Positions 12,001 to 15,000 of a stretch of DNA of 41,681 nt are shown here, piece after piece; positions within the stretch are counted from its first letter, which is position 1, and each line of letters opens with the position of its first letter. Source of the stretch: a virus (lineage: Duplodnaviria > Heunggongvirae > Uroviricota > Caudoviricetes); IMG/VR virus record IMGVR_UViG_2606217106_000020; one strand, 5' to 3'. Position numbers: made by a program.

Positions 12001-15000
12001 CGAAGAGCTTCCCCTGATAAAGCGAATGCAATCGAAGAAGCTACTCGTAATTTCACGGGTTATAAACCTGTGAAAAAGGAAAACCTTGTGTTCGCATCGC
12101 GTAGAGCATCGGCAGCATAAGTAACACCGCTCTTTTCACAATGGGCATTCGTCCTACGTCGCTGACAAAGCGAGCCCCAAGATATCTGACCAACTAAGGC
12201 CATATGCGTTTCCACGCATACCTTTCAACTAACTATTCACTATTTGGAATCATAAGAAATGTCACAAACAAGTTACAGCAAACTGTCACAGCGCGATATC
12301 GATCGAGCTGAAACGGATTTACTTATCAACCTGTCAGCTCTGACGCAAAGGGGACTGGCGAAGATGATTGGCTGCCATGAATCGAAGGTCAGTCGTACCG
12401 ACTGGCGATACATCGCGGCGATTTTATGCGCGTTCCAGATGGCATCTGATATCAGTCCGATCAGCCGGGCTTTCCAGCATGCCATTAACGTTCATGCAAA
12501 TAAAAAACGTCCGGTTGGGGCCGGACGTTCTGAGCAAATCCTGATGAACATCTGATATTCAGGCAGGGCATGGAGCAATACACGGGAATAATTCTGCCAC
12601 ATCTGGAAGAATTTCGCCAGCAACAACACCAACCGCAGCAGCCTGAAGCCGATTGGGTTAACCCGGAGATACCGGGACCGTCTGTGAAGATGTGCAGTCA
12701 CACCAATGTGCAGTCACACCAACCGCAGCAGCCTGAAGCCGATTGGGTTAACCCGGGAGATACCGGGACCGTCTGCGGTATGGAGTAAATCTTGTATGCG
12801 AGGGGACTATGCGTAATTACGCAACAATTTCACCTCAGTTCTGGTTAGGCGATACAGGGCGAAAACTAAGGAAGTCTGGTCCGGAAAGTATGGTAGTGGC
12901 GTTGTATATGATGACCTCGCCTCATTCCAATATGCTGGGCCTTTATTACCTGCCTGTTTTGTACATTGCTCACGAAACCGGACTTGATCCTGAAGGGGCT
13001 TCTAAGGGGCTTCAAATGGCTTGCGAGGCTGGTTTTTGCAGCTATGACCATGATTCTGAGGTTGTATGGGTGCATGAAATGGCAGCATGGCAGGTTGGTG
13101 AATCGCTGAAACCTGGCGATAACCGTTGTGCTGGGGTAAGAAATGAATATTCCGCGTTGCTGGAAAATCCTTTTTTATCATCCTTTTATGATAGATATAA
13201 GGATGATTTCCATCTGGATGTCAGACGTGAATCATGTCGGAAAATTGAAGCCCCTTCAGAGCCCCTTTCAAGCCAAGAACAAGAACAGGAACAGGAACAG
13301 GAAAGAGATAAAACCCTTCTGGTCCATGGCGAAAAAATCGCCACGGACCCACAGGGGGATTCTTGCCCCGTTCTGACTGAGCGTCCAGGACCAACTGGCA
13401 CGACACCGGAAGCAGATTCCGGGCGTTGTGTGCAGCAGGTGCTGATCGTCGAACCGGAGCAACAGCACCAACCGCAGCAGCCTGATGCCGATTCCGCGAT
13501 GAGCGGGAAGCCGATTGGGTTAACCCGGGAGATGCCGGGACCGTCTGCGGGACGAGTTGATTATCCTGACGTGTTCGAACGGGTCTGGCGTGAATATCCG
13601 CATCGGGCAGGGTCAAACCCGAAGAAATCCGCGTTCAATGCCTGGAGGGCCAGATTACGCGAAGGGGTGTCACCGGATGTCGTGCTGGATGGCGTGAGGC
13701 GTTACGCAAGATACCTGGAGGCTACCGGGAAAGCGGGAACTGAATTTGTTCAGCAGGCATCGACGTTTTTTGGCCCGAACAGGAATTTCGAAAATCCGTG
13801 GTCGCTGCCGAAGGCTGGCGCAGTCAGCCTGCGTTGCGTGAATCACATTTCTGAACCGGACACCGAAATTCCGCCGGGTTTCAGGGGGTAATCAGCCATG
13901 AAAAACATTTCGACAGGAGGGATTCTTGAACGGGTGCGCCGTCTGGCACCACCGCACGTGGCAGCACCGTTCCGGACGACCGACGAATGGCGGGAATGGC
14001 AACTGGCTGAGGGCCGTAAGCGCAGCGAGGAAATTAACCGCCTGAATCATCAGGCGCGGGTTGAAAAAATCCTGAACCGTGCGGGCATCCAGCCGCTTCA
14101 CAGGAAGTGCTCATTCGGGAACTACCGGGTGCAGAACGACGGTCAGCGCCATGCTCTGAGCCAGGCGAAATCCATTGCCGATGAATTGATGACCGGTTAT
14201 ACAAACTTCGTGTTCAGCGGGAATCCGGGAACCGGAAAAAATCATCTGGCGGCGGCTGTGGGTAATCGTCTGCTGAATGCCGGTAAATCCGTGATAGTGG
14301 TCACCGTGGCGGATGTGATGAGCGCGTTACATGCCAGCTATGACGACGGACTGTCAGGGGAAAAATTTTTGCGTGAACTGTGCGAAGTGGACCTCCTGGT
14401 TCTTGACGAAATTGGCATCCAGCGTGAGACGAAAAACGAGCAGGTGGTACTGCACCAGATTGTTGACCGCCGGACGGCATCACTGCGCAGTGTCGGGATG
14501 CTGACAAACCTGAATCATGCCGCAATGAGCAAGCTTCTTGGTGAGAGGATTATGGACCGGATGACCATGAACGGTGGTCGTTGGGTGAATTTTAACTGGG
14601 AGAGCTGGCGGTCAAACGTTGGACGTCAGGGTATGTGAGAATTTTTGACGAGGTAAATTTTCGATGGAAACCGTATTGCATGCACTGAAAGCGATGGGAA
14701 AAGCCAATTCTGTTGAACTGGCGGCGCGGCTTGATATCAGCCGTGAAGAAGTTCTCAACGAACTGTGGGAGCTCAAAAAAAATGGCGTTGTTGATAAAAC
14801 GGGTCACACCTGGTTTCTGGCTGTCGAAGGTGAAGCCGGGGTAACCGAAGGGCAGGCACTGCAACCTGAAGCGCCGGATGTGGTAACCGAAGAGGTCGCT
14901 CCAAAAGTTACCGCAGACATGATGATTGAGTTTATCGATCAGGATGGGGCTAAAACGTGTGAGGAACTGGCGGGGAAGTTCGGTGTCAGCACTCGTAAGG

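Follow-up and report, generated by a model that had tools for sequence, protein, structure and literature searches.

The window considered here is a 41,681-nucleotide (nt) stretch of DNA from a virus (Caudoviricetes; IMG/VR virus record IMGVR_UViG_2606217106_000020). It carries three copies of a long repeat: two in tandem just upstream of the replication initiator gene (12809 to 13891, plus strand; 360 amino acids [aa]; PHROG 1701/3729) and one within that gene. A preliminary description of the window offered two readings of these repeats, either iterons bound by the initiator and marking the origin, or products of recombination that partially duplicated the gene segment. Our comparisons favor the second: the upstream repeats are quite probably an ordinary partial duplication of the initiator gene, specific to one lineage. 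A different element, the 9-mer AAGGGGCTT, recurs in 11-bp-phased pairs inside the gene and is predicted, from comparative sequence evidence, to be bound by the initiator and to mark the origin.

Structure and derivation of the long repeats

The three copies, all on the plus strand, lie nearly where they had first been placed. Copy A (12619 to 12687, core at 12627 to 12684) is a non-terminal upstream unit with a 1-nt deletion and without a 23-nt segment that is present in copy C; copy B (12709 to 12778) is the terminal upstream unit and contains CCCGG-N6-CCGGG plus the palindrome GGGTTAACCC. Copy C (13458 to 13550), which we regard as the parental segment, lies ∼750 bp away from the upstream copies and encodes part of a disordered linker (EQQHQPQQPDADSAMSGKPIGLTREMPGPSAG) in the C-terminal module of the initiator. 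The copies share 47 to 60 nt at >90% identity, where none would be expected by chance. A 31-nt core pattern allowing up to three mismatches matched only B and C in the window (0.00 expected), copy A being missed because of its 1-nt deletion. A perfect tandem of two 16-bp elements, ATGTGCAGTCACACCA (12690 to 12721, plus strand), joins A and B; it is part of a 90-bp unit and absent from one-copy variants, and it sets the tandem period at 90 to 91 bp. A palindrome-like fourth copy at 13713 to 13730 matched at only 78% and was treated as chance.

Several details of the earlier account needed correction. The palindrome had been given as CCCGG-N5-CCGGG, which is true of copy A only, the spacer being N6 in B and C. 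Copy C had been said to carry a 24-bp insertion: its extra segment (13494 to 13516), with GCCGATT direct repeats on both sides, is 23 nt relative to B and becomes 24 nt only relative to A, since A lacks one G. The polarity is also reversed, because upstream units in one Escherichia coli locus, L005, keep the 23 nt; it is the upstream copies of the window that carry a deletion. The coordinates of the initiator ATG (12809) and of a 72-aa open reading frame (ORF) over copies A and B (12570 to 12788, plus strand) were correct.

The upstream units carry the indels and substitutions of the window-type allele of the initiator gene itself (GATGAGCGGG, GGGTTAACCCGGG, and ACCGTCTGCGG in alignment A2), not those of the Tritos-type allele, a homolog encoding the "phage replisome organiser" initiators of other E. 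coli phages (PHROG 3729). In L005, upstream units that retain the 23 nt are 93 to 99% identical to that locus's own copy C over 84 to 92 nt. This identifies the linker-coding segment of the same gene as the source of the upstream units, as the duplication reading had it, and the copy-number variants described below support the same conclusion. The 90-bp units of the window arose by deletion between the GCCGATT repeats; a similar repeat-to-repeat deletion, of 24 nt between AAGCCGATT repeats, separates the window gene from that of Tritos farther upstream. Some variants are common to the upstream units and copy C within one prophage (GATGCC in L005, GAAGCC in POCJ13, and GAGATG in the last L005 unit), which suggests ongoing gene conversion.

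We also considered a Tritos-type allele as the source of the upstream units, with the 72-aa ORF keeping an "ancestral" frame, and ruled this out by the window-type indels in alignment A2. The only Tritos-like stretch of the upstream units is TCACACC at the left edge, and the frame match of the ORF to Tritos is a coincidence of the 23-nt deletion.

Copy number and distribution

The preliminary description had pointed to repeat copy number in related prophages as informative: within the Eru4 lineage, to which the window belongs (see below), one, two, or three upstream copies occur, in units of 90 or 113 bp. Complete E. coli genomes included 81 with the upstream region and 78 with DNA for the initiator N-terminal domain (N-domain), all at least 96% identical; copies were counted in the 60 listed of the 81. 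Two copies were present in 48 of the 60. These genomes matched the query over all of its 421 nt, which corresponds to two copies; for two of them the match was a joined one spanning 1014 bp. Seven genomes have one copy; in the two that we verified (L004 and L008) the 16-mers are absent and the sequence is an A/B recombinant. Three 90-bp units were found once (L006), and three 113-bp units that keep the 23-nt segment twice (L005). In the remaining two, the N-terminal part of the initiator gene is deleted. The one examined (L007) is an exact recombinant between an upstream copy and copy C that has lost the N-terminal two-thirds of the initiator; RefSeq labels the product "incomplete; missing N-terminus." This defective prophage with its recombination-truncated initiator lies at L007 1939 to 2350 in E. 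coli SW071619, and the other is in SW07163.

Linker copies were then surveyed at 92 loci by blastn of the upstream 600 nt against each locus's own initiator gene, and were found in the Eru4 lineage only; long repeats were absent from 79 genome loci and five phage loci of the same N-domain family. By this sampling, upstream copies appear confined to one young lineage of E. coli and Shigella, Eru4. A sister E. coli lineage (L093 to L096), with 78% N-domain identity, has no linker copy within 2 kb upstream; it has YdaS/YdaT-type neighbors, and its window-type N-domain is joined to a Tritos-type allele of the C-terminal module (C-module). Thus, the upstream copies share allele-specific indels with the gene, are polymorphic in copy number and unit with a recombinant among them, and are absent from sister lineages, as is typical of a segmental duplication.

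Two further observations concern these surveys. In several assemblies, short-read contigs of the sister lineage end inside the initiator linker, at AAGCCGATT or at a (GAACAG)n run, probably because the C-module is common to several prophages per genome. In L069, a metagenome-assembled genome of an uncultured gammaproteobacterium, 441 bp at −600 to −166 before the ATG are 96% identical to nt 481 to 921 of the gene; either the initiator gene is duplicated in tandem there, or the assembly is at fault.

We suggest that ∼95 to 115 bp of the linker-coding segment (copy C) would have been duplicated between cII and the initiator ATG, amplified in tandem, and then reshaped by unequal crossing-over, by slippage between GCCGATT repeats, and probably by gene conversion. 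How the fragment arrived upstream is a matter of speculation: an excised circle carrying N-domain and origin might have integrated in the linker of a resident initiator gene, whose own N-domain was then lost. The upstream copies would be unneeded for origin function, their by-products being a spurious ORF and a recombination hazard, with crossing-over between an upstream copy and copy C deleting the N-domain of the initiator, as in L007. The long repeats would accordingly shrink in significance to a recent partial duplication, one that leaves the prophage prone to loss of that domain.

Candidate iterons and other origin-like features within the initiator gene

Sites of the AAGGGGCTT type form two clusters in the gene, each with an 11-bp phase. 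Cluster 1 (12993 to 13012, plus strand; sites starting at 12993 and 13004) is two copies of AAGGGGCTT and encodes EGASKGL in a predicted helix (residues 61 to 73); cluster 2 (13248 to 13267, minus strand in the window; sites starting at 13248 and 13259) consists of AAGGGGCTT and AAGGGGCTC. A repeat search returned the same features as two copies of AAGGGGCTTC at 12993 to 13015 with an inverted counterpart at 13245 to 13267. Exact 10-mers number three in the window, all inside the initiator gene and within these two stretches.

Relatives with diverged N-domains (aa identity of 73% in Klebsiella, 62% in Acinetobacter, 56% in Ralstonia, and 55% in the E. coli phages Fraca and CharmingMan) have the 9-mer at these two places in the gene as well, as pairs or triplets with an 11-bp phase; Ralstonia has the variant motifs AAGGGGGTT and AAGGGGATT. 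Phased motifs in two clusters are present in all branches of the family, and the motif was also noted at L093, in the sister E. coli lineage. A scan of one genome per species added 79 loci from Beta- and Gammaproteobacteria with 46 to 65% identity. At least two sites were found at gene nt 150 to 240 in 61 of these and at nt 380 to 540 in 64; motif density was 15.8/kb at those positions versus 0.41/kb elsewhere, an enrichment of ∼38-fold.

Three lines of evidence place the constraint on the DNA. Cluster 2 is oriented minus at 52 loci, plus at 8, and mixed at 16, and a flip exchanges the encoded peptide EGASKGL for APSEPL or APSKPL while leaving the DNA motif unchanged. Synonymous sites are frozen: where residues are invariant, cluster 1 has a pairwise codon identity of 1.00, compared with 0.47 elsewhere (Mann-Whitney P = 0.002). 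Finally, a position weight matrix (PWM) built from the cluster 2 sites of other species gave the four in-gene sites the highest scores anywhere in the 41.7-kb window (17.6, 15.8, 15.6, and 14.0; the next was 12.6). Seven Acinetobacter loci (L010, L017, L018, L021, L024, L026, and L030) have a third cluster of this type at −37 to −15 before the initiator ATG, which may serve autoregulation. Searches of the literature, whose coverage was incomplete, did not find AAGGGGCTT described as an iteron.

Other features of the gene would fit an origin. Between the clusters lies its AT-richest part (13150 to 13240; GC content of 0.38, with 60-nt windows down to 0.32), inside which is the palindrome ATCATCCTTTTAT-N5-ATATAAGGATGAT (13177 to 13207). 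An A-rich, purine-skewed run (13268 to 13318, plus strand; 51% A and 73% purine) encodes QEQEQE and contains (GAACAG)n; a (GAACAG/GAGCAG)n run follows cluster 2 in all relatives compared. This run is a candidate unwinding region; it is not strongly AT-rich, and it also encodes the conserved QE linker. The (GAACAG)n tract at 13274 to 13300 is length polymorphic in E. coli prophages, where the matching region measures 516, 522, 528, 534, or 540 bp. Next comes the palindrome GGTCCATGGCG-N7-CGCCACGGACC (13321 to 13349; 11-bp arms) at the start of the shared C-module, exactly where homology to Tritos begins. It is conserved in Tritos-type genes, more so than its surroundings, and could be part of the origin, like the palindrome of the lambda ori, or a recombination joint.

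As in lambda, the most likely place for the origin is within the initiator gene itself. In the scheme we propose, the winged-helix N-domain would read the two clusters of 11-bp-phased AAGGGGCTT sites, unwinding would take place in the neighboring A-rich run or the AT-rich stretch, and the C-module with its DnaT-like tail (see below) would recruit the DnaC-like loader and the host helicase.

Alternative roles for the long repeats

That the long repeats are genuine iterons, with the initiator binding GGGTTAACCC or CCCGG-N6-CCGGG at the two upstream sites and the internal one and starting or throttling replication by looping or pairing, is in our estimation very unlikely. The idea owes its appeal to their arrangement (tandem copies immediately before the initiator gene, another one within the gene, and a palindromic core) and to a copy number that varies, as it does in many iteron arrays; comparison gave it no support. 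In place of short phased sites of ∼20 bp there are units of 90 or 113 bp, in one to three upstream copies with a single distant one, and no AT-rich region adjoins the array (GC content of 0.55 to 0.58 across 12610 to 12790). The supposed binding core is unconstrained: copy C and the terminal units have an N6 spacer, the non-terminal units an N5 spacer, and in unit 1 of L005 a palindrome arm is mutated (GCGGG). Nor do the repeats covary with the N-domain. They are missing from the sister lineage and from the 79 other loci with the same N-domain, and copy C sits in a C-module that is common to initiators of different DNA-binding specificity, the Tritos type included; the N-domain is unlikely to recognize an element that moves together with the C-module. 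No site in the long repeats resembles the motif that does covary with that domain; AAGCCGATT, tried as a degenerate iteron, has a PWM score of at most 1, versus 14 to 17.6 for the in-gene sites. No DnaA box was found near the long repeats within one mismatch, and neither strand of the repeat region has a σ70-type promoter by consensus scan and regular expression. We infer that the long repeats lack a replication function and are not recognition sites of the initiator.

Some other function for the long repeats is doubtful as well: they might be a homology bracket for module exchange, a site for a host protein, the DnaC-like loader, or the DUF1627 protein encoded downstream, or an ORF that tunes translation of the initiator. 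The direct repeats do flank exactly the cassette of N-domain and iterons (12809 to 13457), recombination across them occurs in nature (L007), a module boundary is found a short way before copy C, with the same N-domain present on a Tritos-type C-module in the sister lineage, and the 72-aa ORF stops 20 nt before the initiator ATG. Yet the sole recombinant observed is a dead end without the initiator N-domain, no candidate binding protein is tied to the sequence, and the sister lineage and distant relatives do without such an element. An RNA element at 12556 to 12830 was rejected (sense-strand fold z = −0.98 and no relevant Rfam match). We consider it improbable that the repeats serve as portable homology arms, moving the specificity cassette into the linker of any phage that shares the C-module, or as accessory sites whose binding or pairing would modulate the firing of the origin; if true, the homology-arm version would amount to a dedicated route for swapping origin specificity. 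Least credible of all is that the upstream ORF is a real small-protein gene made from duplicated linker. RefSeq and phage records list it as "hypothetical protein," and its sole PHROG match, the unknown-function family PHROG 2751, is made of such ORFs; it stays open, at 43, 72, or 103 aa, in the one-, two-, and three-copy variants with 90-bp units. It is open there only because 90 is divisible by 3; in L005, with its 113-bp unit, the frame is broken into pieces of 41, 57, and 38 aa. Between the window and L005, all four substitutions in the unique 5′ part are nonsynonymous, a small sample without any sign of purifying selection on the duplicated frame. The sequence AGGG stands 1 nt from the ATG of the ORF, a poor Shine-Dalgarno spacing, and neither Pfam nor NCBIfam gave a match. 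As the preliminary description supposed, the 72-aa ORF is probably a by-product of the repeats and not a gene.

A lineage-specific duplication without a function is nevertheless not the reading that every observation would favor. None of the 78 E. coli genomes with this N-domain DNA lacks an upstream copy, as would be expected of iterons; among the complete E. coli genomes there is no zero-copy member of the exact Eru4 lineage, the zero-copy relatives being the sister lineage and more distant loci only. This constancy may be simple linkage in a young lineage. CCCGG-N6-CCGGG is also kept in the Tritos-type homolog of copy C, which is ∼20% diverged and read in another frame, and could hint at a DNA-level role for this element of the C-module; with two alleles, such a role is not separable from chance. 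Conservation of cluster 1 could be driven partly by the protein. Finally, both the lack of initiator binding to the long repeats and the binding of the AAGGGGCTT sites are predictions from sequence comparison.

The initiator protein

The initiator comprises a winged-helix-like N-domain (residues 1 to ∼150), a QE-rich linker, and an exchangeable C-module (residues 165 to 360). The N-domain model (predicted local distance difference test score of 88.6) consists of helices and a β-hairpin; a Foldseek search against the PDB returned only generic winged-helix proteins (MarR, CAP, CzrA, and BusR; E values of 0.01 to 0.07) and no specific initiator relative. The protein has no match to Pfam Phage_rep_O, nor to any Pfam family at E ≤ 0.01. 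Thus, the predicted origin would work like the lambda ori with an initiator that is no member of the lambda O family.

Homology to Tritos, in both protein and DNA, runs from residue 165 (approximately nt 13318) to the stop codon with 64% aa identity and covers copy C. Within it, the window linker is frameshifted by −1 and then +1 over ∼16 codons compared to the Tritos allele (MSGKPIGLTREMPGPSA versus IQREADRVVPENTGQPV; 13458 to 13550 versus L002 2545 to 2650); evidently, this part of the linker tolerates any sequence. The last residues of the initiator (336 to 360; 13816 to 13891), with the tail NHISEPDTEIPPGFRG, resemble the C-terminal tail of E. coli DnaT (PDB 2ru8, 6aep, and 9zbt, E values of 0.008 to 0.026; NCBIfam NF002770). 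The resemblance explains old annotations as "primosomal protein I" and hints at mimicry of a DnaT interaction. The RefSeq start of the POCJ13 initiator (NC_025434 gp16) is 27 codons late, at MVVALYMM (L001 2191 instead of 2110); a start at MR(D/N)Y is kept in all relatives across genera.

Comparison with other replication systems

The lambda ori lies inside gene O and consists of iterons, an AT-rich region, and a palindrome; the O N-terminal domain binds the iterons, and its C-terminal domain recruits the helicase loader. The AAGGGGCTT clusters, and not the long repeats, correspond to this arrangement: they are short phased repeats in the initiator gene, at the junction of N-domain and C-module, and cluster 2 is followed by a strand-asymmetric A-rich run and then a palindrome. 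In both systems the iterons stay linked to the N-domain when the C-module is swapped, and the gene order is cI, cro, cII, initiator, loader. The two differ in that lambda has four contiguous 19-bp iterons, whereas the window has a 9-mer motif in 11-bp phase, with two sites per cluster and clusters ∼250 bp apart; in that the run here is A- and purine-rich rather than strongly AT-rich; in the lack of membership in the lambda O family; and in the partner protein, which is of the DnaC/IstB type of AAA+ protein and not lambda P. Conceptually, this would be another lambda-style "ori inside the initiator gene."

Tritos-type initiators share the C-module with the window, boundary palindrome and copy C homolog included. 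They likewise have two iteron clusters in the gene, and an acidic, A-rich linker comes directly after the second. BLASTP shows no relationship between their N-domain and that of the window, and their iteron is GTCACG with a phase of ∼10 bp, present in Tritos as four copies at L002 2037 to 2075 and five at 2297 to 2345. They have no upstream linker copy, and the copy C segment is in another frame, given the −1 and +1 shifts of the window allele.

Iterons of theta plasmids (pSC101, R6K, P1, and F) are 17 to 22 bp, phased, and coevolve with Rep, and inverted half-sites upstream of rep serve autoregulation. The likeness of the long repeats to these is superficial (repeats upstream of and within or near an initiator gene, and a palindromic element near its start): the long repeats are units of 90 to 113 bp copied from coding sequence, are unphased, and show no covariation with the DNA-binding domain.

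A useful by-product of this analysis is that the origin of Stx phages of the Eru4 replication type can be predicted in a concrete, testable form, and the AAGGGGCTT prediction extends to a large uncharacterized initiator family of Beta- and Gammaproteobacteria. Since replication of Stx phages drives toxin production, their origin and initiator specificity are of practical interest.

Genomic context

The early-right region has a lambdoid order, cI-cro-cII-ORF-initiator-loader. A cI-like S24 repressor gene (11069 to 11773, minus strand) is followed by a cro-like gene (11887 to 12120) and by cII (12259 to 12555, plus strand; PF05269 [Phage_CII], E = 6.5e−26), which sets the lambdoid context; downstream of the initiator gene is that of its partner, a DnaC/IstB-like AAA+ helicase loader (13898 to 14638, plus strand; PF01695, E = 1e−19), and then a DUF1627 gene. 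The 1.8 kb around the repeats are 97.9 to 98.6% identical to Shigella phages 75/02 Stx and POCJ13 and to Escherichia phages phiSTEC1589-Stx1c and PhiR5_2, spanning cII, the ORF, and the initiator gene and including both upstream copies. Phage 75/02 Stx is the Eru4 type phage (Fagerlund et al. 2022, PMC8951638), and the initiator/AAA+ pair adjoining cI-cro-cII in the window is nearly identical to its own. By this sequence match, the replicon is of the already cataloged Eru4 replication type of Stx phages. Fagerlund et al. (PMC8951638) classified the Eru4 gene pair only, the first protein being of "unknown function" and the second a "helicase"; they state that nothing is known of Eru replication proteins or origins and mention no repeats. 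In the literature that we searched for POCJ13, Eru types, and the motif strings, there was no account of repeats, iterons, or an origin.

Opposite the 3′ end of cII, on the minus strand at 12495 to 12600, lies a possible oop-like antisense RNA. It has no Rfam family match and no consensus promoter upstream; its features are a strong intrinsic terminator (stem at 12531 to 12504; an 11-bp stem plus a T run), a second hairpin before it, and a fold z score of −2.8.

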